From positions 127-64,126 of the forward strand of contig CAIOPG010000008.1 in the NCBI GenBank assembly GCA_903860135.1: a DNA stretch of 64,000 nucleotides. The letters are read 5' to 3'. Positions 684 through 42,793 of this stretch are shown here, piece by piece. Each line of letters starts with the position of its first letter. Positions within the stretch are counted from its first letter, which is position 1. Below the pieces are notes generated by a model that did not search any database, had not been told where the DNA came from, and saw only the letters and a list, made by a program, of their open reading frames with translations. A program made the position numbers and the translations under genes. Source of the stretch: Candidatus Omnitrophota bacterium. Lineage in GTDB: Bacteria; Omnitrophota; Gorgyraeia; Zapsychrales; Fredricksoniimonadaceae.

Positions 684-1832
684 CTAATTCTCCTGCACAC
701 TCACCAGCTTGCCCATGTGTTCGAGTTTGGCGGCGATGAGGGGGATGATGGTTGCGCGGGGGAGGATGCCTTGTTTGCGGTAGGAGAGGTCTTTATTGGC
801 AGGATTCTTGGCACGGCCGACCATGAAATTGACACGGTCAGCGCCTTTAAGGAGGAGTGCCAGGTCGGCGGCGGCGCTTTGGTCGGAATCATGCTCAAGG
901 TCTTCGCCCAGGATATTGTAAACCTGGTTTAAGGTCACAGCACCCTCGGTGACGAGGTCGATCCCCTCGATGAAATAGCGCGGGGGTGTTGAATAAGAAA
1001 CAGGTTTTTGTTCAACCTCAAGCGTCTCCTGGGCACAGCGCGCCACGATATCAGCCGTCGTTGCCCCGCATACCACTTTAAGCCCTTCCCGACCCAGAAA
1101 ATCATGCACCAGGGCCATGTCGCGCGCACGGTCCAGGGCTGGCCCGGTCAACAGATCCACGACCTGGCCCTGGCGGCAGGAAATAACGGCCACCGTCTTG
1201 TCGTCGCCATTGACGGGGCCGTCGTGCTCCTGGGCCTGACGCAGGATGTCGCGGACCACAAACCGCAGGGGCCTGCCCCGCCCGGCCCAGCCGCGCAGGA
1301 ATTCTTCCACCCCGTCGCTCCCCCAACCCATCGGGAAAGAACGCCCGATCCCGGCCTGGGTTATGCCGTCGCTGACCAGCACAAGGCCATCGCCCGGATC
1401 CAGCTGGCCGTGATATTCATGCGCCACCCCGGCCGGGATCACCAAAGGATGCGCTTCCAACACATGAGCTTCTTTCGTCCCCAGAAATAATGGGGGCGGC
1501 ATTTCATACCCGAGGGCTGTAAGGGCGCCGTCATTTAAAATACGCGCCACAAGGAACGCCGTAAACGGCTTGGTCCCGTCACGCCACTGGTTCATGGTCG
1601 CCACGACGCTCAGGAACGCATCGCGCAAGGACATGCCTGACTGCAGGAGTGCCGCCAGGCGTGCAGTATTCATGCGCGCGGCCACATGCGCCCTGACGCC
1701 GGAACCGACCCCGTCGGCACAGATAAGCGTGGTGTGATAGATGGTGCGTTTGCACAGGAACGTATCGCCGCAGGGATTCCCCGGCTTCTTGGAAACATGC
1801 TGGAACTCGACTTCAAAATGATGATACGGCAT
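684..1832 (-). CDS. PP2C/SpoIIE-type serine phosphatase with an uncharacterised C-terminal domain; signalling partner of the sensory hydrogenase
   Basis: 382 aa. The N-terminal ~240 aa have the PP2C/SpoIIE fold signature (acidic metal-binding motifs VSDG/DGIT). Immediately downstream of the PAS-hydrogenase with a 3-nt gap, as in Hfs/HydS loci. Confidence 0.7.
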   Translation of the reverse strand: MPYHHFEVEFQHVSKKPGNPCGDTFLCKRTIYHTTLICADGVGSGVRAHVAARMNTARLAALLQSGMSLRDAFLSVVATMNQWRDGTKPFTAFLVARILNDGALTALGYEMPPPLFLGTKEAHVLEAHPLVIPAGVAHEYHGQLDPGDGLVLVSDGITQAGIGRSFPMGWGSDGVEEFLRGWAGRGRPLRFVVRDILRQAQEHDGPVNGDDKTVAVISCRQGQVVDLLTGPALDRARDMALVHDFLGREGLKVVCGATTADIVARCAQETLEVEQKPVSYSTPPRYFIEGIDLVTEGAVTLNQVYNILGEDLEHDSDQSAAADLALLLKGADRVNFMVGRAKNPANKDLSYRKQGILPRATIIPLIAAKLEHMGKLVSVQEN

Positions 1833-1834
1833 GT

Positions 1835-3568
1835 TTAAGTTTTCTTATCCTTATCCTCGGCAATATCCTTGCTGTCCACCGCTTGCATGAGTTTATTGAC
1901 GAGCTGTTCGCCCCTGGCGGTGTATTCACCGAGGAAATCGGCAAACTGGCGGGCCATTTCGATCTGGTGTTCATGCAGTTCGCGCGCCTGGGAAACCGTG
2001 TCATCTTTGACTTTTTGCAAGCGCTCGGCGTTGAGGCGGCTGTCGGTGATGTTGATGAATATCCCCACAAACTGCTTCTCGGCACGCAAGGCATACACCA
2101 GTTCCCGGGCAATGATCCCCTGGGCTTTATGGGCCCGCACATCATCGGCCATTTCGATCTCGCCGGACTTCACGCGCGAGAACGGTTCAGGATCCATCAG
2201 ATGGGACACATGCTGGCCGCAACATGATTCATTGACCCGGAACAACCGCGCAAAAGCAGGATTAAAATTCAGGATATTAAGGTCATGGTCGAGGACAATG
2301 ATCCCGTTGGGGCTGGTTTCCATGATCCGGTCCGACCGCTGTTCCGCCAGGCGGCGCATGTACGGGATGCACATCTCGGTTTCCGCCATGCCCTGAACAA
2401 CGGCCATGGCCTGGTCGCGGCAGGACGCATACCCGCACGCCCCGCAATTCAGCTGATTTTCTTCCCTGGCCTTGCCGGTTTTCTCGAGCACCGCGCGCAC
2501 CTCATCTTCGGGCACCGCGGACCCGGCATGGGGATGAGGCGCAAAAGCCGTTGCCAACTCCACCGCCCCGGCCTTCCGGGCAGTTACCCCGGGATTGCTC
2601 CGGGCATAACGGATGATCCTGGCCCGGCGGTCAACCACATTCCCGGCCTTGCCAATGCCCGCGCCGTTCACACAACCGTACGCGCACAACAGCGGTTCAA
2701 TGATGCGGGGAAAAGCACCCCGGGCCGCCTCTTCGAGAACATTCTTCAACGCCTCAAACCCGCTGATAAAAAGGAGCTTGTCATCGAGAACGCTGGTCTC
2801 AAACGCCGCGGTCGCCATCGAACCGCCTTCAACAGGAAACAGCCGACTCCGCCCGACCGGTTGTTCATCAAAAGAGCTGTCCTCGCAGGTTGCCAGATCA
2901 ATGCCCCGGAGCCTGAACCATTCGTCGAGCTCGTCGAAGGTCAAAACACAATCCACCAGGCCGGAAAACTCCGGACGATCAGCTTCCGCTTTCTTGGCCA
3001 CACACGGCCCGATAAAAACAACTTTAACCTGCGCGAACTTCGCCCGGATATGGCGCGCGTGCGCGATCATGGGCGACACTACCGGCACGAGATTCCCGAT
3101 CATGCCCGGATCATATTTCTCAATATAGGAAACAACCGCAGGGCATGCGGTACAAATATACGTTTTCGCAGGATCCTGCACACAGGCGGCGGTCTTTTCC
3201 GCCACCAGGTACGCCCCCACCGCCGTCTCGGCCACATGCGCAAACCCCAGGCGGCGCAGGGCCGCCGGGATACGGGCATACTGCCAGGGCTCGAAAATGC
3301 CGGCAAAAGACGGCGCCAGGCTGACCGCCACCAGAGGATTGTTGGCCACAAGGTCCATGGCAACCGCCAGGTCCCGACGGAAGGTCTTGGCCTCCTGGGG
3401 GCATTCCCGCACACAGGTTCCGCAATGGATACAGCGCTCCGCGTCCACAAAGGCCTGACCCTCGACGATACGGACAGCCTTGACCGGGCACACCCGCACA
3501 CAGCGGTAACAATCACGGCACCGTGCCTTGTTGGTAAAAACCACCTGCCGGGAATTGCCTTCGCCCAT
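1835..3568 (-). CDS. hydS: Putative sensory [FeFe]-hydrogenase (HydS-like, group C): 4Fe-4S ferredoxin domains + H-cluster domain + C-terminal PAS domain
   Basis: Two CxxCxxCxxxCP ferredoxin motifs. H-cluster-like motifs (FIGPCVAKK, CAYGCVNGAG). C-terminal PAS-like segment. The track start at 3646 overlaps hydA; the ATG at 3568 (MGEGNSRQVVF...) gives a 12-nt gap and is preferred. Confidence 0.8.
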   Translation of the reverse strand: MGEGNSRQVVFTNKARCRDCYRCVRVCPVKAVRIVEGQAFVDAERCIHCGTCVRECPQEAKTFRRDLAVAMDLVANNPLVAVSLAPSFAGIFEPWQYARIPAALRRLGFAHVAETAVGAYLVAEKTAACVQDPAKTYICTACPAVVSYIEKYDPGMIGNLVPVVSPMIAHARHIRAKFAQVKVVFIGPCVAKKAEADRPEFSGLVDCVLTFDELDEWFRLRGIDLATCEDSSFDEQPVGRSRLFPVEGGSMATAAFETSVLDDKLLFISGFEALKNVLEEAARGAFPRIIEPLLCAYGCVNGAGIGKAGNVVDRRARIIRYARSNPGVTARKAGAVELATAFAPHPHAGSAVPEDEVRAVLEKTGKAREENQLNCGACGYASCRDQAMAVVQGMAETEMCIPYMRRLAEQRSDRIMETSPNGIIVLDHDLNILNFNPAFARLFRVNESCCGQHVSHLMDPEPFSRVKSGEIEMADDVRAHKAQGIIARELVYALRAEKQFVGIFINITDSRLNAERLQKVKDDTVSQARELHEHQIEMARQFADFLGEYTARGEQLVNKLMQAVDSKDIAEDKDKKT

Positions 3569-3579
3569 AAGCCGTCTTC

Positions 3580-5604
3580 CTATCCTTTGGCCTGCCGCGC
3601 AGCCAGGGCCTTGTCCACCGCCTGCACCGCCTTGGCCACGTCGCAATGGGTGATGGTGAGATCCCCCACTTTCACGGTCGGACCCTTATTGCATTTCTCA
3701 AAACAGAACGTCGCCTTGACCTGGACAATATCCTGCAGATTCTTCTCATGGATATACCGCGTCATGTGATGCAGGATGTCCTGTGCCCCTTTAAGGTAAC
3801 AGCTTGTCCCCACACACACCCGGATCTCGAGCTTGTCATGTTGTTTCCCGTCGACAATGATCATGGATTTCCCGCGCATGCGGCGGCGGGCATTGTAATG
3901 GGTGTGCAAGGCATGATGCGCCTTCTCACTGCCCGGGCTCCCGAGTTTCGATGCGTACAATTCCTTGACGTAGGGATTATCCTGCGACTTGTGCAGCTGC
4001 AGCATCTTGTCGGCTTCATACAGGCCCTTGGTGCGCTTGGCCTTGTACCCCGGCGTCAGATTGACCGGCTGACCGGCCCCATTAATACACCCGGCCGGAC
4101 AGGACATGAATTCAATGAAATGATACTGGATCTTCCCGGCCTTGAGCTTTTCGAGGAAAGCGCGCGCATTGGCCAAAGAATGCACCACCGCCAGGCGGAA
4201 GGTCTTGCCGGCTAAGGTCACTTCAGCCTCACGGATACCGGCCTCGCCGCGCACCGCGTGAAAATCCGGGTTCTCAAGCGTTTTGCCCTCGACTTTTTCA
4301 TACACATACCGCAACGCCGCCTCCATCACACCGCCGGTATTACCGAAAATGACACCGGCACCCGTCTTGAACCCCAGCGGCATATCCAGCGAGCCCGGCT
4401 GAAGGTCACGGAACTGAATGCCGAACTGATTGATCATCTGCACCAGCTCCTGGGTCGTGATCACATGATCAACCTCGGGCATGCCGTCGTGCGTGAATTC
4501 CGGGCGTTTGGCCTCGAATTTCTTGGCTGTGCACGGCATGATCGACACAACAACCATATTTTCGGGCGCGATCCCGAGCTCCGCCGCAAACAGCGACTTG
4601 GCCACAGAACCAAACATCTGCTGGGGCGATTTGCAGCTGGAAAGATTGGGGATCATTTCAGGATAATGCTGTTCCACAAACTTGACCCACGCCGGACAGC
4701 AAGACGTGAACATCGGCAGGATCCCGTTATTGGTCACACGGTTGATGAATTCATTGCCTTCTTCGAGGATCGTGAGGTCGGCGCTGAAACACGTATCGAA
4801 TACTTTCTTGAAACCCATGATCTTGAGCGCGGCCACGATCTGACCGGTCGTCAATTCACCCGGCTGATACCCGAACGCTTCCCCCAGCGCCACACGCACC
4901 GCCGGCGCGATCTGCGCGATCACAACCTTCTTTGTGTCATTCACGGATTTCCATACCGCTTCGACCTCCGAGCGCGGCGTCAAGGCTCCCGTCGGGCACA
5001 CGCGCGCGCACTGGCCGCACAACACACACGCAACACTTTCAAGGTCTTTCCCGAAAGCGGGCTGGACCACCACGTCATGGCCGCGATGCGCAAAATCAAT
5101 GGCACCGATACCCTGCACTTCCGCGCACATGCGCACGCAGTCGCCGCAAAGGATGCACTTGTTGGGATTGCGCACGATCGACGTCGAACTTGTGTCAATA
5201 GGATGTGGTTTCTGCACAGAACGGAAACGCACCTTGTCTACCCCCAGCCGCTTGGAAATATCCTGCAGTTTGCAATTGGTGCTTTTCACGCACGTCGTGC
5301 ATTCGCGGTCATGATTGGCCAGGATAAGCTCCAGCGCGATCTTGCGGATCTGACGCACTTCGGCGGTATTGGTTTTAACCTTCATCCCCGCTTCGGGAGG
5401 TGTCGAACACGACGTCAAAAGGCCGCGCCCCTCGATCTCAACGGTACACATCCGGCAGGCGCCGTACACACTCAGCTCCGACACATAGCAGAACGTCGGG
5501 ATATCGATATGGGCCTTGCGAATAACCTCAAGGAGGTTCTTCTCCCCCTCTATCGGCACTTCACGCCCGTCAATGTTGACATACTTAACAGCATCCATGG
5601 TCAA
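3580..5604 (-). CDS. hydA: [FeFe]-hydrogenase catalytic subunit HydA of a trimeric bifurcating-type enzyme, with a C-terminal thioredoxin-like [2Fe-2S] domain
   Basis: 674 aa. Has an N-terminal 2Fe-2S NuoG-like fold, 4Fe-4S motifs, the H-cluster signatures TSCCPAW / MPCTAKKFE / MSCPAGCINGAGQP, and a C-terminal CxxxxC...CxxxC NuoE-like domain, as in Thermotoga-type HydA. Confidence 0.9.
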   Translation of the reverse strand: MTMDAVKYVNIDGREVPIEGEKNLLEVIRKAHIDIPTFCYVSELSVYGACRMCTVEIEGRGLLTSCSTPPEAGMKVKTNTAEVRQIRKIALELILANHDRECTTCVKSTNCKLQDISKRLGVDKVRFRSVQKPHPIDTSSTSIVRNPNKCILCGDCVRMCAEVQGIGAIDFAHRGHDVVVQPAFGKDLESVACVLCGQCARVCPTGALTPRSEVEAVWKSVNDTKKVVIAQIAPAVRVALGEAFGYQPGELTTGQIVAALKIMGFKKVFDTCFSADLTILEEGNEFINRVTNNGILPMFTSCCPAWVKFVEQHYPEMIPNLSSCKSPQQMFGSVAKSLFAAELGIAPENMVVVSIMPCTAKKFEAKRPEFTHDGMPEVDHVITTQELVQMINQFGIQFRDLQPGSLDMPLGFKTGAGVIFGNTGGVMEAALRYVYEKVEGKTLENPDFHAVRGEAGIREAEVTLAGKTFRLAVVHSLANARAFLEKLKAGKIQYHFIEFMSCPAGCINGAGQPVNLTPGYKAKRTKGLYEADKMLQLHKSQDNPYVKELYASKLGSPGSEKAHHALHTHYNARRRMRGKSMIIVDGKQHDKLEIRVCVGTSCYLKGAQDILHHMTRYIHEKNLQDIVQVKATFCFEKCNKGPTVKVGDLTITHCDVAKAVQAVDKALAARQAKG

Positions 5605-7502: not shown

Positions 7503-8010
7503 GCGTGCTCTCCTCTTTCTTTTTGATATCTTCCAGAAGCTTTAAGGCTTTTACAGAAGTCATTTGCCCGTACACCGTTTCATTGACCACGATGACCGGA
7601 GCCAAACCGCAGGCGCCCAGGCATGACACGGTCTCGACCGTAAACAGCATGTCCGGCGTGGTCACATCCGTGCCGGTCAAACCGAGTTTCTGGCGCAGGG
7701 CATCGAGCAAATTTTCCGAACCTTTCACATGGCAAGCTGTCCCGTCGCACAGGCGCACCACATATTTCCCCTTGGGCACCAGCGCAAAATGCGCGTAAAA
7801 AGACGCCACCCCGTACACCTTGGCCGGCGACAAGCTCAGGGTCGTCGCCACAAAGGTCATGACTTCCTCGGGAAGATAGCGATATTCATCCTGGACTTCC
7901 TGCAAGATGGGGATCAGTTTGGCCGGATCAGCACCATGCCGTTCGACAATGGCGCAAACCTTTTCAAATTTTCGATACATCACTGTTGGCATTGTTCTCT
8001 CCTTGATCAC
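7489..8010 (-). CDS. hydC: NuoE-like [2Fe-2S] subunit HydC of the bifurcating hydrogenase
   Basis: 173-aa track ORF. NuoE 24-kDa signature (CDGTACHVKG...CLGACGLAPV). The true start is probably a downstream Met near 7980-7992, to limit overlap with rex. Confidence 0.85.
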   Translation of the reverse strand: MIKERTMPTVMYRKFEKVCAIVERHGADPAKLIPILQEVQDEYRYLPEEVMTFVATTLSLSPAKVYGVASFYAHFALVPKGKYVVRLCDGTACHVKGSENLLDALRQKLGLTGTDVTTPDMLFTVETVSCLGACGLAPVIVVNETVYGQMTSVKALKLLEDIKKKEESTHVSV

Positions 8011-8674
8011 GGTTACGTTTAAGATTATTCGTTAACACGGCCAGGCTTTGGGTCAGGCGTGCATTTTCCAGGATAACATCCGCCGGGATGCGCAACGGCG
8101 CCGGCGCAAAATTCCAGATCGCCTTTATCCCGGCATTGACCATCAAATCAACAGCAGACTGCGCATGCTCCGCCGGAACGCTCACGATCCCGATATGGAC
8201 ATGCATCCGCTTTGATAAATTGGCCAACCTATTAAGCGGAAGGACTTCTTTACCAAAAATACGTGTGCCGACCTTACGGGGATCATTATCAAAAGCCGCC
8301 ACAATATTAAGGCCGTACTTTTCAAAATCACGATATCCTAATAGTGCCTTACCAAGATTGCCCGCGCCCACAAGGAACGCATCATGCGCATTGTTCCATC
8401 CCAGAAACTCCTTTATACTGTCCACAAGGCCCGCCACCCGAAAACCGATGCGCGCCGTCCCCACCTCACCAGTAACCTCAAGATCCTTGCGTACCTGTGT
8501 CGGATCAAAATCAAATTCTTTGGCGATCTGCGTGCAGGAAACATATTCAGCACCCTCGGCCATCACTTTTTCCAGAAGATGCAAGTACAGCGGAAGCCTT
8601 TTGAGTGTCGAACGCGAGACCACCAAAGGTTTTTTCTTGAATATCATCCGGAATTCCTCCTGCCGGCACCCCAT
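7964..8674 (-). CDS. rex: Redox-sensing transcriptional repressor Rex
   Basis: Has an N-terminal winged-helix region (LKRLPLYLHLLE) and a C-terminal Rossmann NADH-binding fold (FLVGAGNLGKALL). It is the first gene of the hydrogenase operon, as is typical. The start may be the ATG at 8647. Confidence 0.85.
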   Translation of the reverse strand: MGCRQEEFRMIFKKKPLVVSRSTLKRLPLYLHLLEKVMAEGAEYVSCTQIAKEFDFDPTQVRKDLEVTGEVGTARIGFRVAGLVDSIKEFLGWNNAHDAFLVGAGNLGKALLGYRDFEKYGLNIVAAFDNDPRKVGTRIFGKEVLPLNRLANLSKRMHVHIGIVSVPAEHAQSAVDLMVNAGIKAIWNFAPAPLRIPADVILENARLTQSLAVLTNNLKRNRDQGENNANSDVSKI

Positions 8675-8692
8675 CGCCCGCGCCCTTTAATA

Positions 8693-8774
8693 GAGAAAAT
8701 TTTATCGATAAAACTTTGTTCAAATATAGCACGGGAAAAAGTCATGTCAAGAAAATTTTCTCGATTAAAACTTG
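8693..8774. promoter_or_regulatory. Two related palindromic operator-like sites flanking the rex promoter: GAAAATTTTATCGATAAAACTTTG at 8693-8718 and GAAAATTTTCTCGATTAAAACTTG at 8751-8774
   Basis: Direct repeat of a ~24-nt unit, each with a palindromic core. TTTTATCGATAAAA is a perfect 14-bp palindrome. One site overlaps the predicted TSS and the other abuts the -35. A related palindrome occurs upstream of the second hydrogenase operon. Confidence 0.3.
8723..8750 (-). promoter_or_regulatory. Sigma70-like promoter of the rex-hydCBA-hydS operon (TTGACA-N16-TATATT on the minus strand)
   Basis: rc of 8745-8750 is TTGACA and rc of 8723-8728 is TATATT, with a 16-nt spacer. It lies ~50-80 nt upstream of the rex start codons. 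Confidence 0.35.
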
Positions 8775-8816
8775 CGATTTAAGTGAAACTTGTAAATATG
8801 GATACCAAGATTAAAA

Positions 8817-8861
8817 CCCTCCTCCACGAGCGAAGCGAGTGTGGGGAGGGACGGGGAGGGG
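8817..8861. repeat. GC-rich hairpin element CCCTCCTCCACGAGCGAAGCGAGTGTGGGGAGGG(ACGGGGAGGGGG); one of three related copies in the window
   Basis: Inverted repeat CCCTCC..CAC / GTG..GGAGGG. Related copies occur at 19243-19269 and 26396-26422. Confidence 0.35.
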
Positions 8862-8937
8862 GCATTAAGTCATGCAGAAAAGAAGGAAATCTTTAACCGT
8901 TACGCTAAGAACAGATTCGCATCGCCTCGTCGACATC

Positions 8938-9171
8938 TCAGGCAACATCGTCTGCCGGCAGATCCGGAAGCTTCGCCCTGATACTGTCCAGTACCCTAAA
9001 GCGCTCCTCCCTCGAATCCGCCAGCCGGGCATAATCCTGAGCATTAAGGATAACCACCATCGGAATACCTGATTTCTCGACAACAAACCGGGCACCATCC
9101 TTATACGACCGCCGCATGATTTCCCCAAAATGCGTCCTAGCCTCGACCGCAGAAATAGTGTCCACTGTCAT
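8938..9171 (-). CDS. Phd/YefM-family type II antitoxin (apparently orphan)
   Basis: 77 aa with a typical Phd/YefM N-terminus (ISAVEARTHFGEIMRR...PMVVIL). Only a 23-codon remnant ORF follows it where a toxin gene would be expected. Confidence 0.65.
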   Translation of the reverse strand: MTVDTISAVEARTHFGEIMRRSYKDGARFVVEKSGIPMVVILNAQDYARLADSREERFRVLDSIRAKLPDLPADDVA

Positions 9172-9194
9172 ATCATTCCTCTGATTACCCCTGC

Positions 9195-10307
9195 TCAGCC
9201 CTTTTCCTGCCCTTGACGCCGCGGCTGTTCTTCTATCCGCTGGGACTGAAACGCAGCCTTGACGTCCGACATACCACTGACGCTCTTGATCGCGATATCT
9301 TCAACTTTCTGATACGCCTTGTCCAACTGCGCCGAGAGGCGGGCAATCTGTTCTTTTTGTTCCTTGCCCAAACGCTCGAGTGCCTCAAGCTGGGATACCA
9401 GCACATTCTTTTCACCTTCCAGCGTCTTGCGCAGAAGCTCCTCGCGATTTCTTGCCTCCAGCTGAACCCGCTCCACCGCCTCTTTAACGGCTCGCTGGAT
9501 CGATGTGTCAAGTTCTTTCGGAAAACCGTCGACGCGTTTCTGAAGATCAGCCAACAATTTTTCTCCGTCGACAACGGTCTTTTCCCGGAACAATAATTCT
9601 TTTTCCAGAGTTTCCTTCTTCAAACGCAACTCTTTTTCCATCCGGACTTTTTCATCTTCAATCACATTTTTCGCCAGCACCTGTTCGCGCTTGAAGGCGT
9701 AGTCGTATTCTTCTTTTTCCCGCTGGCGCCGACGATTTTCTTCCGTATCCCGCTCCTTGCTCATCTGCTGATAATCTTTCTTTTCCTTCTCATATCCGGC
9801 ACGCAGGGTGTTGATCTCAAGCGTGATCTCATCTTTCTCCCGTGCCATCGCCGCGTCGAAATCTTCTTTCCTGGCCGCCTGTGCATCCAACAAAGCCGCC
9901 AACGTCTGGGCGTTCTTTTCGATGCCGTAGATCTCCTGAAGCTCCCGCTCCTTAACACTGACAGCCTCCCGAACCCGAGCGTATTTCTGAACCTCTTCCT
10001 GCAGGGAATCTGCCAGATGACTCAACATCTTCCCGATTTCCACCCGCAGCCCGCTCGTTTCCTTCACGACATTTTCCAGGGACAGCGCATTGGTTGTTTC
10101 TACCGCCGCTTTTTCACGTTTCTTCTCAATCTCAAACTCCGGCCGCAATTCCACCCGCTCTTTATCCTGGGATTGTTTCAACTGATCGTTATAGGCATCC
10201 AGCAAATTCTCTTTTGAACTTTTCTTCACTACTTTCTTTTCAGCCATGACTAACTCCTTGTTATTATTTTCAATAAGATGTCGATGCATTAACCCATTGC
10301 TGAACAA
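9195..10307 (-). CDS. Hypothetical coiled-coil protein rich in charged (E/K/R) heptads
   Basis: 370-aa ORF with no recognisable catalytic motif and strongly alpha-helical, charged repeats. The real start is likely MAEKKVVKK at 10247. Confidence 0.45.
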   Translation of the reverse strand: MFSNGLMHRHLIENNNKELVMAEKKVVKKSSKENLLDAYNDQLKQSQDKERVELRPEFEIEKKREKAAVETTNALSLENVVKETSGLRVEIGKMLSHLADSLQEEVQKYARVREAVSVKERELQEIYGIEKNAQTLAALLDAQAARKEDFDAAMAREKDEITLEINTLRAGYEKEKKDYQQMSKERDTEENRRRQREKEEYDYAFKREQVLAKNVIEDEKVRMEKELRLKKETLEKELLFREKTVVDGEKLLADLQKRVDGFPKELDTSIQRAVKEAVERVQLEARNREELLRKTLEGEKNVLVSQLEALERLGKEQKEQIARLSAQLDKAYQKVEDIAIKSVSGMSDVKAAFQSQRIEEQPRRQGQEKG

Positions 10308-10459
10308 TCACCCCCGGCCAAAATGCTATGCGTTTATGGGAACAATATCAAGACAAAATTGGAATGATATTGGAACATATTGTAAACTAACGAGTTGTGA
10401 AATATATAGTTAATCATGGAGAATAAAACCAATAAAATAACACAAAGAAACACCTATAA

Positions 10460-11614
10460 TCAATCCGTCTTCACAAGAAATATGTCAAGCGCCTGACGCC
10501 ATGGTAAAACAACAATGTCATGGGGCAATTTCCGGGGATGCGCATCCTTCAATGATACGATGAACACCGGCAATGCTGGAAAACGCTTGCGTAAAGCTAT
10601 CCGAGCGTCATCGGATATTGTTTCCAATGAGGTCTTACACTCAAACGCCATCACAGGACCGCGAGGCCCTGTGACCAGGATATCAACCTCATGTTTCCCT
10701 TCCCTCCAAAAAGCTAACTCATACGGCTTTTCATGATAATCCCTGATACGCCTTAGTTCATTATAAAAGAATGTCTCGAACAAAAATCCCTTCTCCTGTG
10801 GCGTAGGTGAATCTGTCAAACGATTCTGCAATGCCCGCACAACCCCGCAATCGAAGAAATAAAACTTCGGACGTGCCTTCTTTCGTTCACTCCTGTCCCA
10901 CGGCCACAAGAAACTCCCCAGGAGCGTATCTTCCAGAATTGAAAAATATTCTTTCACCGTACTCATAGAAACCGATGAATCTCGCGACACCGAAGCAAAC
11001 TCAATAGTCTCTGCATTCATTTGAGCCGCCACAGCTAGAAACCTCTGAAAAGCACCCACATTGCGGGTCAAGGCCTCAGCCTGGACTTCTTCTTTGATGT
11101 AAATGGTACCATACGCTTTTAACTGCCGTCGGACATCATCTACTTTGCCTTCAAGAAACGTTGTCACCACACGTGGCAATGTTCCATACGCCAAAGCCAT
11201 TTCAACATCAAACGCTTTCCCGATCTCCTCATGCGTCAACGGATAGAGCCGGAGATCCAACGCCCTTCCTCCCAGCAAGTTAGCACTATCCCTGCGCAGC
11301 TTTCGAGCGCTTGAACCGGAAAGAATAAATCTCAACCCTAGTTCTTCTATCCCCTTTTGCACATAATTTAATAGAACCGGAACACGCTGGATCTCGTCGA
11401 TAATAACCAGATCATCCTTGCTCAACATCTGCAACTTTTGCCAAAATAAAGACGGCGAACGCGACAAGGAAAGCTCAACTTCAGGATCCAGCAAATCCAG
11501 AAAAAGCGCATGCCGCAATTGGCGCAACAAAAAAGTCTTGCCTGTCATGCGAGGGCCAAACAAGAAAAGAGAGCCGGAAATCTTATTTAATTGAAGGGAT
11601 CGATGAAAGTTCAT
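10460..11614 (-). CDS. AAA+ ATPase with a C-terminal DUF4143 domain (AAA_14/DUF4143 'ATP-binding protein' family)
   Basis: 384 aa. Walker A GPRMTGKT near the N-terminus and Walker B-like DLVIIDEIQ. The C-terminal region resembles DUF4143 proteins. Lower GC than the hydrogenase genes. Confidence 0.7.
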   Translation of the reverse strand: MNFHRSLQLNKISGSLFLFGPRMTGKTFLLRQLRHALFLDLLDPEVELSLSRSPSLFWQKLQMLSKDDLVIIDEIQRVPVLLNYVQKGIEELGLRFILSGSSARKLRRDSANLLGGRALDLRLYPLTHEEIGKAFDVEMALAYGTLPRVVTTFLEGKVDDVRRQLKAYGTIYIKEEVQAEALTRNVGAFQRFLAVAAQMNAETIEFASVSRDSSVSMSTVKEYFSILEDTLLGSFLWPWDRSERKKARPKFYFFDCGVVRALQNRLTDSPTPQEKGFLFETFFYNELRRIRDYHEKPYELAFWREGKHEVDILVTGPRGPVMAFECKTSLETISDDARIALRKRFPALPVFIVSLKDAHPRKLPHDIVVLPWRQALDIFLVKTD

Positions 11615-11703
11615 ATTAAGAGAATAACATATATATGTTATTTATCAAACTTAAATAACAACTCATTGGCGTCAGCAGTTCAAATCAGCTCAGCCAATAA
11701 GCA

Positions 11704-12855
11704 TTAGACCGCAGAACCATTCTTAATTCTTAATAGCTCATACCTTAAGTCAGATTTAAATAATGTCGGGCTTAAACTCTTCAATCTCTTTTGAACCGTA
11801 TCTAAAGCCGGTTTCGAATTATCAATGCCAATCCACCTCCGACCTAGTTCATTCGCTGCCATAATAGTTGTTCCAGATCCCAAAAAACAATCCATAACCA
11901 CATCATCTTCATCTGAAGAAGTCGTAATAATACGCCGCACAAGCTCTATATTCTTCTCTGTCGGATATTGGGGATACATGGGATCTTTGTACTCCCAGAT
12001 ATCTTGGACTCTTTTCCCTCTTTCACGCGCATCTTCCATAAAAATTCTTTTTCTTGGTACGTTATTCTTCGACCATTCAACAAGCCCAGCCTTATCTAGG
12101 TTTTCCAGTTCAGCGGGATCACTCCGCCAATGACGCCCCTTGGGCGGAAGAATCCCTCTCCAAGCCTTGCCTGTTGATCCATTAGCCGTCTCTCCCGGAG
12201 CATGTAACGGAATCGTGGTATAATGCCGTCCATTTTCATCAACCTTTAAAAAAAGCTTTCTTACTTCATCTCCCTTAAAAGCCTCTCGCGGCTCATGCCA
12301 GGTATATTTACCCGTCTTTGAATAGAAAAGGATCAAGTCTTTAATATTTCCATACCCTTTACGACTAAAATTCTTTGGGCTACATTTAATGCGCGCGATA
12401 TCATTTCTAAAATTAGAAATACCGAATATCTCATCCATCATGATTTTCACATAATGCCCGATTTTATAATCAATATGAAGGTAAATGGACGCCTTATCTG
12501 ACATTAATTCTCGCATCAAAATAAGTCGCTGTCGTAAAAACTCAATGAACTCCGCACCGATAAGATTGTCTTCATACGCCGTCTCATCACTTTGAGCAAA
12601 ACTAATCGTACTGGTTCTTGTTTTTCCGATTTTGAAAGTGTTTCTTGTAGAAAAAGGAGGGTCAATATAAATCAAATCAATACTCTTGCTCAAATTCAGA
12701 TCATACAATAAGCACTTTAGAACCTTTAGATTGTCTCCAAATATTAATTTATTCTCATGACCTTTCATCCCATTCTCAGTCAGTAATTCACCACGATCAT
12801 GTTTGCTTAATACGCAAGCTTCAGATAATTTATTCTTATATTCTAATGATATCAT
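11704..12855 (-). CDS. Type II restriction-modification DNA methyltransferase (amino-methyltransferase, beta class: N6-adenine or N4-cytosine)
   Basis: 383 aa. Motif IV DPPF (IYIDPPFS) precedes motif I (FLGSGTT) near the C-terminus, which is the beta-class order. AT-rich (~35-40% GC) compared with the flanks. Confidence 0.8.
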   Translation of the reverse strand: MISLEYKNKLSEACVLSKHDRGELLTENGMKGHENKLIFGDNLKVLKCLLYDLNLSKSIDLIYIDPPFSTRNTFKIGKTRTSTISFAQSDETAYEDNLIGAEFIEFLRQRLILMRELMSDKASIYLHIDYKIGHYVKIMMDEIFGISNFRNDIARIKCSPKNFSRKGYGNIKDLILFYSKTGKYTWHEPREAFKGDEVRKLFLKVDENGRHYTTIPLHAPGETANGSTGKAWRGILPPKGRHWRSDPAELENLDKAGLVEWSKNNVPRKRIFMEDARERGKRVQDIWEYKDPMYPQYPTEKNIELVRRIITTSSDEDDVVMDCFLGSGTTIMAANELGRRWIGIDNSKPALDTVQKRLKSLSPTLFKSDLRYELLRIKNGSAV

Positions 12856-12867
12856 CGATAACCCTTT

Positions 12868-13719
12868 TTAAACCTGATATAAGAAATCCCGCAATACGAG
12901 TGAACTCATTATGTTGTATTTTTGCTTGTTAGTCGCAATAAAATCATACATTTTATTTCCACTCTTGATATATAAAACCCCATCCAATATCGCAATCTTG
13001 ACAGCCGTGACATCCTTTGCTTCTAACGTCTGGATGGCATCTTGAAACTGTGCGTTCTGATGCCCTCCGAAATCAGTAAGAAACTTAGCCTCACCAATAA
13101 TATACTTCCCGTTAAATCTTGCGACAAAATCCAAACCTTTGGGATGAGAATATCCAAGATACTTTTCTGCAAACAATCGCATCTCTGCATCCCCCGCATC
13201 CAGCACGGCATTCTCCGAGGAAAGAAGAAACTTCTCGGAGCTTAGTAAGCTCACACCCAAAGTCTTTTTATTTAACCATCGACGAAACAATGGTCCAATC
13301 TGTCGATTTGTTTCTTTAGGCTCAGTGCACTTTTTAAAGATTTCTGTCAATCCCATTTCATATATTCGACCGGCCAAGCGGTTAACTGTTTCAGGATTCC
13401 TCTTTAATGCACCCCGGTCTCTCTTAAAATAAGCAACATATGAGTCTTTGATCGGAAACAATTCAAGATCTAACAAAGACTCTATTAATGCCCCGTTGTC
13501 TTTCTTTAAAAATGATGACTCCACAGTTCTCCACAGCGCATTATCAACCTCTCTAATGCCCTCCGGGATAATAGGATAAACTTTATAAAGCTCATCAAGG
13601 TAATTTCTCTGATTGGCATAATCAACACTCATTTGTGTCCAAATATTCATACGTAACCTTTCAGCTTCTATAAAGAATGTACGGGAAAAGACATGCTTTC
13701 TATACCGTAACAATACCAC
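12868..13719 (-). CDS. Putative Type II restriction endonuclease partnered with the adjacent methyltransferase
   Basis: 283-aa ORF immediately upstream of, and co-oriented with, the methyltransferase (12-nt gap). AT-rich. No family recognised; a possible PD-(D/E)xK-like segment (IIGEAKF) is present. The real start may be internal (MNIWTQ...). Confidence 0.4.
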   Translation of the reverse strand: MVLLRYRKHVFSRTFFIEAERLRMNIWTQMSVDYANQRNYLDELYKVYPIIPEGIREVDNALWRTVESSFLKKDNGALIESLLDLELFPIKDSYVAYFKRDRGALKRNPETVNRLAGRIYEMGLTEIFKKCTEPKETNRQIGPLFRRWLNKKTLGVSLLSSEKFLLSSENAVLDAGDAEMRLFAEKYLGYSHPKGLDFVARFNGKYIIGEAKFLTDFGGHQNAQFQDAIQTLEAKDVTAVKIAILDGVLYIKSGNKMYDFIATNKQKYNIMSSLVLRDFLYQV

Positions 13720-13824
13720 TCTTGCGTGTGGGTGTCAAGGTGCCTCGCCCACGCTATTAACTTAACGGCATAACCTTGGCAAACTTTATATCAGTAGAAC
13801 ATCAAGGTCAAGCTTAATAAATGC

Positions 13825-14817
13825 TTACAGCTGAATCTTCAAGCTATGCCCGGCATCCGTGGCAACGGTTCGGCCCAGGGTGCGGAGCATGCCGGCGACA
13901 CAGTTGCGGCAGTCACCGGGAGCGTCGTTGATGCAGATCTTGCCGGGGTAAAGCTGGTAGTGCTGGCGGTAGCGTGTGGGCGTGACATTGGGCATGAGGA
14001 CATTGGCACCGCAACGCAGGGCTTGCTCGCGGCCGCCTTTTTCGATCGAGCCCATGGCGGTGGTGGCGGGAATATGCGTATTCCTTGTTAAAATACGCAA
14101 TAAAGCAACAACCTTGAGCGTCAGCGCAAGCGTGCCGCTGGCAATAGCCCCCAGAGGGGTGCGAGGATCAGCGATAAAGGGGCCGATGCCGATCATGTCA
14201 AGATCGAGTGCCTTCATTTGAAGAATATCATCAGTCAAAATATCCGGCGTCTGGCCTGGCAGGCCAACCATGATCCCGGAACCAACCTGGAAGCCAACCT
14301 CTTTCAGCCACCGCAGGCATTGCATGCGCGCGGCATACGAAGAATCCGGTTTTAACCTGGCGAACAACGCTTCCGATGATGTTTCAAAGCGCAAGAGATA
14401 GCGGTCGGCTCCGGCTGAACGCAGAGCGGCATATTCTTCTTTGGTCTTCTCGCCCATCGAAAGCGTGAGCGCGATCCCCAACTCGGCCTTGATGCGGCGC
14501 ACTAAAAGGCACATTGCGATCAGCGGATACCGGTCATTCTCGCCGGATTGCAGGACCAGCGTCTTGTAGCCGAGGCCGGCGGCTGTTTTCGCTGTTTCAA
14601 AGATCTCATCCACATCCATGCGGTAACGCGCCACCGTGCGGCTGGATGCACGGATCCCGCAATACAGGCAATCGCGAGCGCAAATATTGGAGAATTCAAT
14701 CAGGCCGCGCAAATGCACGGCATCGCCCACACATTCCCGCCGCACACGGTCCGCCGCGGCAAAAAGCTCTGCCGTGTCCGGCGAAGCAAGCGCTTCAAGA
14801 ATATCCGCCCTATTCAT
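13825..14817 (-). CDS. hydE: [FeFe]-hydrogenase maturase HydE (radical SAM)
   Basis: The CxxxCxxC motif (CARDCLYCGI) sits at the expected position. Size is ~330 aa, matching the biotin-synthase-like HydE family. The start was chosen at MNRADIL (14817), which abuts the hydG stop. Confidence 0.85.
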   Translation of the reverse strand: MNRADILEALASPDTAELFAAADRVRRECVGDAVHLRGLIEFSNICARDCLYCGIRASSRTVARYRMDVDEIFETAKTAAGLGYKTLVLQSGENDRYPLIAMCLLVRRIKAELGIALTLSMGEKTKEEYAALRSAGADRYLLRFETSSEALFARLKPDSSYAARMQCLRWLKEVGFQVGSGIMVGLPGQTPDILTDDILQMKALDLDMIGIGPFIADPRTPLGAIASGTLALTLKVVALLRILTRNTHIPATTAMGSIEKGGREQALRCGANVLMPNVTPTRYRQHYQLYPGKICINDAPGDCRNCVAGMLRTLGRTVATDAGHSLKIQL

Positions 14818-14818
14818 C

Positions 14819-16309
14819 TCAGAGGTAAAGATCACGTTCGCCTTTCTTGACACGCTCATAATAGTTCATAAAAATATCCAACGCCTGCGGGTTCTTGCGC
14901 TTGACTTCGGCGATCTCGCGTTCGATCAAAGGCTTGGCCAGTTGTTTGGTCGCCTCACTGCCAAAATCATCCACCCACTCCTGGAACGTCAGGATCGCAT
15001 TCAGTTTGCAAAATTTACCTTCGGCGCCGCTCCGTAAAAGGTCCATGATGCATTTACCCGTCCGGCCGCAACGATAACCTGCGGTACAAAAAGACGTGAT
15101 AAATCCCTGAGCCGCCAGGTCACAGATCAACTCATCCAGCGACCGCGTATCGCCCAGGATAAACTGCTGTTTCTCTTCCTCTTGCGTTGTCACACAATTG
15201 GCATAGCCGCCAATGGCAATGCGCGAAGACGCGTCCATCTGGGTCACCCCCAGTCGCAGGGCCTCGTCGCGGATCGCTCCCTTCTCACGCGCGGTGATGA
15301 TCATGCCCGTATACGGCACCGCCAGGCGGATGATCATCATGATCTTCTTGAAATCATCGTCGGACACAAGGTACGGCCAATCCGGGGTGATGACCGAATT
15401 GAGTGCCGGCACAAGGCGCGGGAACGAGACGGTATGGGCACCGATGCCCATCCTCTTTTCCAACTCCTGCGTATGACGCACCAGCGCAATCAGCTCAAAA
15501 CGCCAGTCATACAGGCCGAACAAGGCACCAATCCCCACGTCGTCGATCCCGGCCTCCATGGCGCGGTGCATGGCATACAAGCGCCAGTTATAATCTGCCT
15601 TGATCGTGCCCGCAGGATGCATGCGGGCATACGTCTTTTTGTGATACGTCTCCTGAAACACCTGATACGTACCGATCCCCGCCTCATTGATCTTCTTCAG
15701 ATCACTGATAGAGAAAGGCGGCGCGTTCACATTGATCCGGCGTATGGCATTGGTGCCGTGCTTTGTTTTAACCTTAACGTCATAGATCGTCTTCATGCTT
15801 TCAACGATATAATCCACATCGTTTTTAGGATGCTCCCCGTACACTACAATCAATCGCTTGTGCCCGATCTCCCCGGCCAGGACTTCAATTTCCCGGCGGA
15901 TCTCCTCCTGACTCAACACCTTGCGGCTAGCCGAGGTATTGTCATTATTAAACCCGCAATACGCACAGCGGTTGACACAATAATTCCCCAGATAAAACGG
16001 CGCAAATGTCACGATGCGATTGTCATAAACCTTGAGCTTGACCGCAAGTGCCGTTGCCCGCATTTCCTCAAGCATTCCCTTGTCATTGACATTGATCAAC
16101 GTCAACACTTCCGCCGGTGTCAGATCTTTAACCGCCAGCGACTTGGCAAGGATTTCCCGGACAGCCGCCGGATCCGGCTCATGCCCTTCGGCCGCCTTGA
16201 TCGCCGCCTCAATGGCATCATCATCAATAAAATCCCTGCCCTCATCCATATACTTTGTGACTTCATCCTGCCTGATCCGCTGACCAGCCCATCCTTTAAG
16301 CGTTTCCAT
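14819..16309 (-). CDS. hydG: [FeFe]-hydrogenase maturase HydG (radical SAM tyrosine lyase)
   Basis: Has an N-terminal radical SAM motif (CVNRCAYCGF) and a C-terminal auxiliary-cluster motif (CTAGYRCGRTGKC). ~495 aa from the METLKGW start at 16309. Confidence 0.85.
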   Translation of the reverse strand: METLKGWAGQRIRQDEVTKYMDEGRDFIDDDAIEAAIKAAEGHEPDPAAVREILAKSLAVKDLTPAEVLTLINVNDKGMLEEMRATALAVKLKVYDNRIVTFAPFYLGNYCVNRCAYCGFNNDNTSASRKVLSQEEIRREIEVLAGEIGHKRLIVVYGEHPKNDVDYIVESMKTIYDVKVKTKHGTNAIRRINVNAPPFSISDLKKINEAGIGTYQVFQETYHKKTYARMHPAGTIKADYNWRLYAMHRAMEAGIDDVGIGALFGLYDWRFELIALVRHTQELEKRMGIGAHTVSFPRLVPALNSVITPDWPYLVSDDDFKKIMMIIRLAVPYTGMIITAREKGAIRDEALRLGVTQMDASSRIAIGGYANCVTTQEEEKQQFILGDTRSLDELICDLAAQGFITSFCTAGYRCGRTGKCIMDLLRSGAEGKFCKLNAILTFQEWVDDFGSEATKQLAKPLIEREIAEVKRKNPQALDIFMNYYERVKKGERDLYL

Positions 16310-19453: not shown

Positions 19454-21217
19454 CTACTTGATATACAAAGGGCGAGACTTGTACTTTGTATGCAACAGCT
19501 TGTGCGACGTGTGCGACAGCGGCTTCTCCAGAAAATCCTTGTACAGCTTCTGGACATGCACATTCTCATGCGAACAACGGTGCTTGAGCCCGGCATCCTC
19601 ATCGTAAAGCCCCTTGGCGCGCTGGCAACGGATCTCGTCGGTCACCATATACGGCTGACCGCCGCCACCCACACACCCACCGGGACACGCCATGACCTCG
19701 ATGAAATGATACGGCAGGGGCTGATTGTTCTTGCGCGCCTCACGGACTTTCTCCATAACCATCTTGACATTCTTCAAGCCATGCGCCACCGCGATCCTGA
19801 CATCCGTACCCTTAACATTGACAGTGGTTTCCTTGACACCCTTTAAGCCGCGCACCGCGGTAAAGTTCACGTCTTTCAAGTTCTCGCCGGTGATCGCAAA
19901 ATACGCTGTGCGCAGGGCCGCTTCCATGACGCCGCCTGTGGCGCCAAAAATAGTGCCGGCACCGCCGTACTCGCCGAGCATCTGATCCGCTTCCTCGTCG
20001 GGCAGGTCCTTGAAGTCAACCCCCGCCTGCTTGATCATGCGGATCAGCTCGCGGGTCGTCAGCGACACATCCACATCCTGAAAACCTGAAGAAGACATAT
20101 CCTCATTGCGATTGATCTCATGTTTCTTGGCCGTGCAGGGCATGATCGAAATGACCTTGATCTTCGCCGGATCGAGCTTCTGCTGTGCGGCATAATACGT
20201 CTTGGTCAGCGCGCCGACCATTTCGTGCGGGCTCTTGGCCGTCGAGAAAAGATCAAGCATATCCCCGTGATACTTCTCAAGGTAATCGACCCAGGCCGGG
20301 CAGCAACTGGTGATCAGCGGCAACGGCCCCTTGTTGTGCAGGAGGCGCTCCACAAATTCGGTGCCCTCTTCCATGATGGTCAGATCAGCGCCGAAATTGG
20401 TATCAAACACCGTCTTAAAACCCAGGCGCCTGAGCAAAGCGTAAAGTTTCTTGGTCAGGTTGGTGCCCACCGGATACCCGAACCCCTCACCGACCGCCAC
20501 GCGCACCGCTGGCGCGATCTGGACCACGCAATGATTATCCTGGTTCTGCAGAAGCTCCCAGACTTTTTGTGTCTCGTCATTCTCGAAAATAGCACCCGTC
20601 GGGCAATGCGCCGAGCATTGGCCGCAACCCACACACGGGGATTCCGCCAGCTGGATATCGCCTGCCGGAGAAATACGCGTCTTAAACCCCCTGTCAATGA
20701 ACGACAGCGCCCAGACATCCTGCATATTCTGGCACACATCGATACAGCGCCCGCACTTGATGCATTTCTTGGGCTCCAGAATGATCGTGCCCGTAGACTT
20801 GTCCACCGGGATATTCGGCAGTGTCCGTTCAAAGCGGTCGTCACGGATACCGAAATCCGCGCAGATCTTCTGCAGTTCGCAATTATTGTTGCGCCCGCAC
20901 ACCAGGCAATCGGTCGGATGATTGGACAGGATCAGCTCAAGCACCGTGCGGCGGGTCTGCACGATCTCAGGGTCCTGGGTCAGGATATCCATGCCGTTCT
21001 CGATGGGCGTACAGCAGGCGCGCAGCATCTTGCGGTTTCCTTTAGCCTTAACAATACAAATACCGCAGCCGGCCGACGGCGCAAGGTCCGCGTGCTTGCA
21101 CAGCGTCGGGATATTGACCTGCACCTTGCGGGCCGCTTCAAGGATCGTCGCGCCCTGGTCGATCTCGACCGGGATCCCGTTAATGACCGCTTTGACTTTC
21201 GTGGTGACCATGGACAT
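19454..21217 (-). CDS. hndD: [FeFe]-hydrogenase catalytic subunit of a tetrameric Hnd-type NAD(P)-linked hydrogenase
   Basis: 587 aa. Has an N-terminal 2Fe-2S, 4Fe-4S ferredoxin motifs, and H-cluster motifs TSCCPAW / MPCTAKKHE / MACPGGCVGGGGQP. Confidence 0.9.
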   Translation of the reverse strand: MSMVTTKVKAVINGIPVEIDQGATILEAARKVQVNIPTLCKHADLAPSAGCGICIVKAKGNRKMLRACCTPIENGMDILTQDPEIVQTRRTVLELILSNHPTDCLVCGRNNNCELQKICADFGIRDDRFERTLPNIPVDKSTGTIILEPKKCIKCGRCIDVCQNMQDVWALSFIDRGFKTRISPAGDIQLAESPCVGCGQCSAHCPTGAIFENDETQKVWELLQNQDNHCVVQIAPAVRVAVGEGFGYPVGTNLTKKLYALLRRLGFKTVFDTNFGADLTIMEEGTEFVERLLHNKGPLPLITSCCPAWVDYLEKYHGDMLDLFSTAKSPHEMVGALTKTYYAAQQKLDPAKIKVISIMPCTAKKHEINRNEDMSSSGFQDVDVSLTTRELIRMIKQAGVDFKDLPDEEADQMLGEYGGAGTIFGATGGVMEAALRTAYFAITGENLKDVNFTAVRGLKGVKETTVNVKGTDVRIAVAHGLKNVKMVMEKVREARKNNQPLPYHFIEVMACPGGCVGGGGQPYMVTDEIRCQRAKGLYDEDAGLKHRCSHENVHVQKLYKDFLEKPLSHTSHKLLHTKYKSRPLYIK

Positions 21218-21252
21218 GGAATAACTCCTTTTAACCCGTAGTAATGCTTATA

Positions 21253-27000: not shown

Positions 27001-27128
27001 GCCGGCAGGCTAAGCACCTGCGCCAAGGCACGCGGCGGAGTCACCAGCGACAATACAAAACTCGCCAGGACAAAGCCGGCAATAAGCCGGAAAGAAACAC
27101 TCTTACGCGAAGCAACGTGACACATCAT
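24033..27128 (-). CDS. Large (1031 aa) secreted hypothetical protein with an N-terminal Sec signal peptide
   Basis: The signal-like N-terminus (hydrophobic core FRLIAGFVLASFVLSLV, then ...ALAQV) supports secretion. No domain recognised. The N-terminal-coding half (~25700-27128) is GC-rich and the C-terminal-coding half (~24033-25700) is AT-rich. An A8 homopolymer sits at 25145-25152. Confidence 0.55.
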   Translation of the reverse strand: MMCHVASRKSVSFRLIAGFVLASFVLSLVTPPRALAQVLSLPAPGSMVTVSPAYTPVIARGLKVHPENPLLFDFIIDAGDSKLAVEGAPFQAESEKLIKYFLASLTVKADDQWVNLSPYEKDRIIPDDLGKTELGRDMLAQDYILKQLTASLVYPEKGLGKEFWARIYAKARAQFGTIDIPVDTFNKVWITADKAKVLERHNTAYITDAHLKVMLESDYMAAQVTQTVTGDPVITPTPASAWGGNGRGAQELAKQVMREVIIPQIEQEVNEGQNFTQLRQIFYAMILSTWYKRALKDALLNQVYTNKSKINGVTSDDPAVKEKIYAQYLAAYRKGVFNYIKEEPQASGETIARKYFSGGLQIPPGIENAMTVDHAAETPVPSSGKQAVVAMVVHVTDAATQEIISPEAVEIQHKIERYANVPWQNWPADVLQWYSVRVAQMITQQKLADDPEALALLKRIGSLNNGTTQAGRSLFGVAMRIGLSSEQGELNPGMAMLVDHIIGYPSGEELKVQIKPEFQIKGTVVEVDLKDIYLNLQSSDQVLLRREKSSPNIDALIRAAFSKEEDSLKHLLGEIGDDFEISSYTDAGNAFRDLLNNDTFQKWLIHKISTGNGFQLPPGLSMEYKWTPEQIFRILEVNYPHEFGRNKQSRLARLSQVMRKKISFEKTILEVIKKNGKVTHQIRRAVSHYVDRIKLMDPQKIQFIVEYPLKIDGQEARVIFAPVDAAATTPGVVDDGQATPQVEALLARWQAAVAGGKELDKELLIVELQDVLGGPNQEAMVLGVVNAAATRWFAVKDKTTVEPYSQLLKRLYPELVVRANGDLLKSKQSDAPGSSIYVSANWVSQIFKQAKKDREDLVAFAKKLKGKIKENSDLLAKLREVSLEGTKSLSEVVMDSTITGFWNIGLTMGLFYKDEDAGSHFNQKINPVVAAELIYVTEKDPQDHTKIRMRSAFDNATVVDGGIDINSNNLSLDVAREGRGVEMALDPAMVAQFERGDFSGVVPVILNITPISSPLPLLGLGADSVAKPLAS
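26396..26422. repeat. Third copy of the GC hairpin motif (CCCTCCCCACGCTGAAGCGGGGGTGGG), embedded in-frame in the 1031-aa CDS
   Basis: The core CACGCTGA[A/C]GCGGGG is identical to the copy at 19243-19269. It encodes ...ASAWGGNG... in the protein. Confidence 0.35.
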
Positions 27129-42718: not shown

Positions 42719-42793
42719 ATCAGACTCTCTATATCAAAACCGATCTTCATGCCGTCTCCCTTGTGTCGAACATCTGCCGCCACGCTAAACACC

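Follow-up and report, generated by a model that had tools for sequence, protein, structure and literature searches.

Tsp45I is a type IIP restriction endonuclease that recognizes GTSAC and is borne on a plasmid in Thermus sp. YS45 (Wayne, Holden & Xu 1997, as cited in PMC3424549). A survey of the PD-(D/E)XK superfamily lists Tsp45I among the type II enzymes of that superfamily, with a patchy distribution, and contains DUF4143/COG1373 as family 100 (PMC3424549). Proteins in which an ATPase is fused to a PD-(D/E)XK domain have been catalogued as PDC-S01, a single-gene candidate obtained through 'guilt by embedding' that ranks fourth in frequency among prokaryotic defence candidates, with experimental validation pending (PMC12988326). 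Here we describe a 5.06-kb block that holds members of both families in the genome of a Candidatus Omnitrophota bacterium (class Gorgyraeia; assembly GCA_903860135.1). It was analysed in a window of 64,000 nucleotides from contig CAIOPG010000008.1 (positions 127 to 64,126), to which all coordinates refer unless a comparison contig (L001 and so on) is named. The block lies at 8766-13824 between the hydrogenase maturation gene hydE and the regulatory gene rex, and it encodes a Tsp45I-family endonuclease with its DNA methyltransferase, a PDC-S01 ATPase, a long coiled-coil protein and a truncated Phd/YefM antitoxin. We consider it likely that this block is a strain-variable accessory island that was imported by homologous recombination and holds independent units.

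The mixture of restriction-modification genes, a candidate defence gene and toxin-antitoxin debris is that of known defence islands. Presence/absence polymorphism, diverged flanks, mixed composition and the lack of an integrase are shared with defence islands and hot spots that are exchanged via flanking homology. The site is different from the usual ones, which are tRNA genes and known hot-spot core genes, in being a 133-bp spacer between a maturase operon and rex. Integrative mobile elements differ from the block in possessing an integrase or transposase, flanking direct repeats or a tRNA target.

An empty site in a near-identical strain

An island-free strain was reached through the second sequence in the 90% cluster of the window's Rex. 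The contigs that encode this second sequence (L103 and a 12-kb ERZ1426828 contig) carry hydG (496 aa) upstream of hydE (334 aa), then the 133-bp spacer, rex and, after it, the genes that follow rex in the window, and contain none of the five island genes. In the window, the order is hydF, hydG, hydE (13825-14859), the island and rex (7964-8674), with the island and both flanking genes on the minus strand throughout. By blastn, L103 is 98.9% identical to window 8765-2405; the match begins at 8765 and picks up again at 13838, and the inserted block occupies 8766-13824. An earlier note on this DNA, made from the sequence alone, had described a low-GC, defence-type island at 8860-13820, exactly between hydE and rex. 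The empty site bears this placement out, and the proposed limits fall within 100 bp of the measured ones.

Identity to the island-free strain changes abruptly around the insert. Measured in 50-bp steps, L103 is 98-100% identical from 8542 downwards but only 52-80% identical between 8543 and 8790. At the hydE end, the last 174 bp (13838-14011) are only 84.5% identical, whereas HydG, whose gene overlaps hydE, is the same protein (100% identity) on the 12-kb contig without the island. Because HydG is identical while the end of hydE and the start of rex are diverged, we place a recombination tract that would start inside hydE, span the insert and end about 105 bp into rex. One of its diverged flanks takes in the rex promoter together with ~105 bp at the start of rex (8543-8765, minus strand) and the other is the 3' part of hydE. 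Arrival by homologous recombination with a diverged donor is indicated, since the flanks are diverged and the remainder of the locus is near-identical.

Three other metagenome contigs (L001-L003) carry island copies that are 100% identical to the window. In L090, which is a more distant relative with a 91% identical HydE, hydE is followed by another gene and by neither the block nor rex, so the downstream junction of hydE is variable in the wider lineage. Other hydE relatives among the metagenome contigs were either more diverged (L091, as L090) or too short for synteny. In two metagenomes, the assemblies break within hydE at window ~13838-14050, between the 3' end of L105 and the 5' end of L002 and between the 3' end of L106 and the 5' end of L003. 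These breaks fit the presence of island-bearing and island-free strains in the same samples.

Searches for the machinery of a mobile element were negative. No tRNA gene was found in the 64-kb window, the only repeats in the window were short ones at chance level with no repeat or att site flanking the block, none of the five island genes matched an integrase or transposase family, and an Rfam scan of the window gave no match.

Composition of the island

GC content in 400-bp windows drops to 0.31-0.49 over 10200-13800, and the lowest 1-kb value of the entire window (0.368, against a mean of 0.531 with sd 0.049) lies at 12251. The compositional island is narrower than the insert, extending over 10248-13824 only (GC 0.408), with flanks of 0.53-0.56. 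The drop that had previously been placed at 10310-13830 is thus real, although its flanks have this GC content rather than the ~0.60 first assumed. At third codon positions (GC3), host genes range from 0.64 to 0.73, except for rex with only 0.53, and the island genes form a gradient from the coiled-coil gene (0.60) and phd (0.58) through the ATPase gene (0.49) to the genes for the endonuclease (0.39) and methyltransferase (0.36). Because the values of phd and the coiled-coil gene are not low, the low-GC stretch consists of the ATPase and restriction-modification genes only, and the first two must be removed from the low-GC island in which they had been counted. We distinguish three composition units, each with its own promoter-like site. 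Further low-GC patches in the window, with 1-kb GC of 0.42-0.47 at 24250-25000, 31750-32250 and 42500-44000, may be other acquired segments.

These data also bear on the converse history, in which the five genes were ancestral between hydE and rex and were deleted in one lineage, making the island-free junction the derived state. Only two alleles are at hand, and the host-like GC3 of the coiled-coil gene and phd speaks for such a history. The restriction-modification genes and the ATPase gene are clearly foreign in composition, however, and the flanks are 16-48% diverged beside a locus that is 98-100% identical, whereas a simple deletion would keep the flanks identical. Moreover, in L090, the next closest relative whose sequence extends beyond hydE, both the block and rex are absent from that position. 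We therefore regard deletion as highly improbable and retain import of the block by recombination.

A Tsp45I-family restriction-modification pair

The endonuclease gene (12868-13650, minus strand) starts at the ATG at 13650 and encodes 260 aa. Its product matches PF06300 (Tsp45I) at E 3.9e-116, with residues 25-282 on model positions 1-259 of 260, and the PADLOC model REase_II PDLC03495 at E 1.9e-117. The methyltransferase gene (11704-12855, minus strand) follows after 12 bp on the same strand. Its product matches PF01555 (N6_N4_Mtase) at E 2e-44 and the PADLOC model MTase_II PDLC03354 at E 1e-160, its catalytic and AdoMet-binding motifs are intact, and their order, DPPF ahead of FLGSGTT, is that of the beta class. 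The closest annotated relatives are paired on pCA639-2, a conjugative plasmid of Campylobacter armoricus, in which the endonuclease (44% identical) likewise precedes the methyltransferase (48% identical). Judged by its sequence, the pair is an intact restriction-modification system of the Tsp45I family, as the earlier note had recognized in outline, with an endonuclease of 260 aa in place of the 283 aa given there.

The full-length PF06300 match, the paired beta-class N6/N4 methyltransferase, the two-gene operon and the mobile, patchy distribution are all features of the Tsp45I system. Unlike that plasmid-borne system, the window pair is chromosomal, and its recognition site is predicted from the family, because the nearest annotated relatives found are only 44% and 48% identical. 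The methyltransferase probably protects host sites of the sequence GTSAC. The window contains 77 GTSAC sites, an observed/expected ratio of 0.82, which amounts to no avoidance. Among other motifs, GCWGC is strongly depleted in the 64-kb window (57 observed against 142 expected; ratio 0.40) and GGWCC has a ratio of 0.63, which suggests long-standing restriction pressure by other systems (TseI/ApeKI-like and AvaII-like) encoded elsewhere in the genome.

A PDC-S01 ATPase

The ATPase gene (10460-11614, minus strand) encodes an AAA_14-DUF4143 protein with a C-terminal PD-(D/E)XK motif. Both Pfam matches (PF13173, E 1e-20; PF13635, E 8e-28) pass the gathering cut-offs, and seven PDC-S01 models of PADLOC match it, the best being PDLC04790 (E 2.9e-47), so that the defence link once suggested for this gene now has a catalogued candidate behind it. 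In an alignment that includes paralogues at 22-26% identity, the Walker A residues G20 and K26, the Walker B residues D73 and E74 and the PD-(D/E)XK signature E309, D311, E325 and K327 are invariant. The AlphaFold2 model (pTM 0.76) retrieved AAA+ proteins such as RuvB, RFC, ORC and DnaA in a fold search, and PDB sequence and profile searches with the ATPase returned nothing useful. Because the Walker A and B and PD-(D/E)XK residues are intact, the protein is most likely an ATP-dependent nuclease, predicted to act alone.

The closest homologues are 83-84% identical, and those with a source name come from metagenome-assembled genomes (MAGs) of Omnitrophota, Elusimicrobia and Patescibacteria. In the two lineages that were looked up, homologues at 82-83% identity (L098 6001-7146; L100/L101 6001-7146 and 3858-5024) are single genes inside polysaccharide biosynthesis clusters, with no coiled-coil or restriction-modification genes near them. 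On L101, an Omnitrophota contig, a second AAA_14-DUF4143 paralogue lies 1 kb from the homologue. The window protein is an ordinary member of PDC-S01 without structural difference: it has the ATPase followed by the PD-(D/E)XK domain, its gene is a single one behind a promoter-like site of its own, and its 83% identity to Omnitrophota proteins is a sign of horizontal spread. As the family awaits experimental validation, 'defence' is here an annotation and not a demonstrated function.

A large family of coiled-coil proteins

The coiled-coil gene (9195-10247, minus strand) starts at the ATG at 10247, with an AAGGAG ribosome-binding site ahead of it. The charged coiled-coil protein described earlier is therefore present, with 350 aa instead of 370. 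It has no Pfam, NCBIfam or PADLOC match and matches the viral protein family phrog_29668 from end to end (E 3e-29). We found at least 707 cluster representatives (50% identity clusters) at E<=1e-30 and roughly 2,000 members at E<=1e-10, which makes this a large, uncharacterized family. Complete members are mostly 330-370 aa long, and the matches listed show no sign of added domains. The family is well conserved, averaging 61% identity per alignment column and sharing the motif RxREKEEYxYxFKREQ. Members occur in at least 370 species genomes; the best 80 of these matches, at 43-54% identity, all come from MAGs and span more than 10 phyla. AlphaFold2 predicts one long helix over residues 57-325 (pTM 0.30), and PDB sequence and profile searches with the family returned nothing useful. 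A structural or scaffold protein is more likely than a partner of the ATPase.

Although the match to phrog_29668 covers the full length of the protein, the family is mainly cellular, unlike the viral one. A viral origin of the gene was considered and rejected, with only two distant relatives (26-27% identity) among 2.9 million viral contigs. Of these two, L096 was examined in detail; it adjoins a transposase and DNA methyltransferases, in an accessory region and not a structural module.

Neighbourhoods of the coiled-coil genes

The earlier note had joined the coiled-coil and AAA-DUF4143 genes in an accessory defence module that rides with the restriction-modification system. Such a two-gene module, in which the coiled-coil protein would be the sensor or scaffold and the ATPase-nuclease the effector, predicts that the two genes keep company in other genomes. 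In the window, the two share an orientation and are separated by 212 bp. Among 74 upstream and 75 downstream neighbours of coiled-coil genes from other genomes, however, no family has more than three members, and this highly variable neighbourhood indicates a gene without a conserved partner. Genes tightly joined to coiled-coil genes on the downstream side include those for transketolase, gcvP, an aminotransferase, TauE, KTSC and PIN_3. No Tsp45I-type endonuclease was present at any coiled-coil locus from other genomes.

Adjacency to AAA_14-DUF4143 genes is nonetheless more frequent than expected. A profile search of 976 kb around coiled-coil genes found six AAA_14-DUF4143 genes, five of which lie within 0.8 kb upstream of a coiled-coil gene (L077, L021, L070, L004 and L041) and the sixth 8.5 kb away. 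In a post hoc binomial test, P is ~1e-5 and becomes ~1e-4 once L021 and L070, which are near-duplicates, are counted as one, and we conclude from these values that the adjacency is not random. AAA_14 plus DUF4143 is also the commonest Pfam family among the immediate upstream neighbours (3 of 74). Thus the co-occurrence proposed earlier is not conserved, with three of 74 immediate neighbours, but the excess of AAA_14-DUF4143 genes upstream, five of the six matches, speaks in part for the earlier note.

Placement within 0.8 kb upstream was seen at five of 86 coiled-coil loci (~5%), which leaves about 95% of the coiled-coil genes without such a neighbour, many of them joined to housekeeping genes. 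These neighbouring ATPases share only 21-26% identity with the one in the window, their orientation varies (three of five are co-oriented with the coiled-coil gene), and a VapBC pair stands between the two genes in L004. The ATPase homologues at 82-83% identity have no coiled-coil gene nearby, the GC3 of the two window genes differs (0.60 against 0.49), and PDC-S01 is catalogued as a single-gene candidate. Taken with the co-orientation, the five upstream placements and the top rank among upstream families, which speak for a module, this evidence makes the two-gene defence system very unlikely. Its proposed association with restriction-modification systems fares no better, given the loci without a Tsp45I-type endonuclease and the different composition and separate promoter-like sites of the units.

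A second explanation is that the region upstream of coiled-coil genes is a recurrent landing site for accessory and defence genes, without a functional link to the coiled-coil protein. Other upstream neighbours include PIN/VapBC, PDC-S02, PDC-S09, a pAgo-like protein, mad3, DUF1016, nucleotidyltransferase toxins, a SacI-type restriction-modification pair and a RhuM-Fic protein. The ATPases next to coiled-coil genes fall into distinct, highly diverged subfamilies, and PDC-S01, as the fourth most common prokaryotic defence candidate (PMC12988326), would land at such a site repeatedly because it is among the most abundant genes of this kind. On the other side, the coiled-coil genes share no DNA motif upstream except the ribosome-binding site. 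A general enrichment of defence genes beside coiled-coil genes was also tried and rejected, with PADLOC matches about as frequent in a control set 6 kb away; because these counts are similar, the enrichment is specific to PDC-S01 and does not extend to defence genes at large. We hold the landing site to be an evenly balanced proposition, and a shared insertion hot spot, at that same strength, to be the best explanation of the AAA_14-DUF4143 adjacency. That the coiled-coil family is a new accessory or defence-associated gene that works with or attracts PDC-S01 ATPase-nucleases in a loose partnership seems doubtful in the extreme.

Several other neighbours of the family may be recorded. In L006, L011 and L026, a 780-aa SNF2-family helicase with TPR repeats, matching the DrmD, BrxH and ZorD models, lies 25 nt downstream of the coiled-coil gene, and in L006 the SacI-type restriction-modification pair lies upstream. 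In L015, L053 and L054, the 3' end of the coiled-coil gene meets or overlaps a gene for a small KTSC-domain protein (73-75 aa). On L102, a 63%-identical coiled-coil gene is preceded by a gene (11-1078) for a 355-aa protein with the Fic/Doc-type motif HAFSDGNKR, recognized by eye, and followed by truA, so that accessory and housekeeping genes are mixed around the family.

The Phd relic and the spacer before rex

The phd gene (8938-9171, minus strand) encodes 77 aa of a Phd/YefM antitoxin (PF02604, E 7e-10). Among its homologues, with the window's own excluded, 45 of 50 are 89-102 aa long, mostly 92 aa; they are 65-75% identical to the window protein, and the named ones are from Omnitrophota. 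An in-frame TGA at codon 78 falls inside the homologous region, and readthrough extends the homology by about ten codons. In L107, a full-length homologue is followed by the gene for a 139-aa PIN_3 toxin, with an 8-nt overlap. In the window, the 263 bp ahead of the rex coding sequence, which contain a terminator hairpin and the rex promoter, have no significant similarity to a PIN_3 toxin. A 23-codon open reading frame (ORF; 8865-8936, minus strand) overlaps phd at its decayed 3' end, in a different frame. It was weighed as a toxin remnant and rejected, having no significant similarity to the PIN_3 toxin of the family.

The Phd-PIN_3 toxin-antitoxin module is a dead relic. Its 77 N-terminal residues resemble the 92-aa antitoxins of Phd/YefM-PIN (VapC-like) modules, but unlike these it has a premature in-frame stop and has lost the toxin gene. 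What had been read as an orphan Phd with a 23-codon toxin remnant is a nonsense-truncated Phd whose PIN_3 partner is gone.

Beyond the relic, a G+C-rich hairpin followed by UUUUAAU (8817-8850, minus strand) is the likely terminator of the coiled-coil/Phd unit. The 81-nt stretch that bears it (8795-8875) folds at -21.9 kcal/mol (z -2.4), and the hairpin is unique in the window. The rex promoter-like site (8723-8750, minus strand) consists of TTGACA, a 16-nt spacer and TATATT, with 11 of 12 consensus matches, and is kept in the empty-site strain. This promoter is bracketed at 8686-8769 by an imperfect inverted repeat of 32 nt and a direct repeat of 25 nt (AGAAAATTTTATCGATAAAACTTTG); the island-free strain conserves the region in part, and the repeats may be Rex operator sites.

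The hydrogenase supercluster

The island is set in a hydrogenase supercluster that begins with a second nuoF-like gene, hydA, an aspartase-like lyase gene, hydF, hydG and hydE. After the island, it continues with rex, hydC, hydB, hydA and the genes for a PAS-containing sensory hydrogenase and a SpoIIE-type phosphatase. On either side of the maturase genes lies a separate [FeFe]-hydrogenase gene set (684-5604 and 19454-22992), with the PAS-containing sensory hydrogenase-like protein encoded at 1835-3646 and the SpoIIE-type phosphatase at 684-1832. Farther along, a 1031-aa ORF without a Pfam domain occupies 24033-27128 (minus strand). On L090, the gene immediately after hydE (2448-4143) encodes a 50% identical homologue that has an apparent signal peptide.

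Discussion

The presence of a near-identical strain without the block leads us to treat it as an ordinary imported defence island and not as a new two-gene defence system. The island and its parts, as first described, have largely stood; the coiled-coil/ATPase module has not. We propose that the independent units gathered between hydE and rex in a donor lineage, and that DNA from this diverged relative would have entered the hydE-rex spacer by homologous recombination, with crossovers that the identity profile places inside hydE and ~105 bp into rex. In the recipient, the Tsp45I-family endonuclease would cut unmodified incoming DNA, the methyltransferase would shield host sites, probably GTSAC, and the solo PDC-S01 ATPase-nuclease would act by itself, in a defence role that is a published proposal. 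The coiled-coil gene, which stands alone in other genomes and is often joined to housekeeping genes, would be independent of these.

Some observations weigh against this account. The two alleles allow either direction, insertion here or deletion with flank replacement elsewhere. The host-like composition of the coiled-coil gene and phd means that both could be old residents of the donor lineage and not mobile cargo. The adjacency of AAA_14-DUF4143 and coiled-coil genes is above chance, which full independence of the two genes does not predict. Non-avoidance of GTSAC fits a recent arrival but equally another specificity or an inactive enzyme, and the expression and activity of the island genes are predictions.

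What is new here is modest: an exact empty site and a recombination tract within a hydrogenase supercluster, a large coiled-coil family for which no domain library has a model, and the placement of PDC-S01 genes next to that family. A speculative two-gene system is replaced by known kinds of parts. The locus provides a clean, delimited case of defence cargo that moves between near-identical strains of an uncultured anaerobe without an integrase. The cargo appears to be exchanged through flanking core genes, which in this case are genes of hydrogenase maturation and regulation, and the spacer between hydE and rex tolerates 5 kb of foreign DNA.

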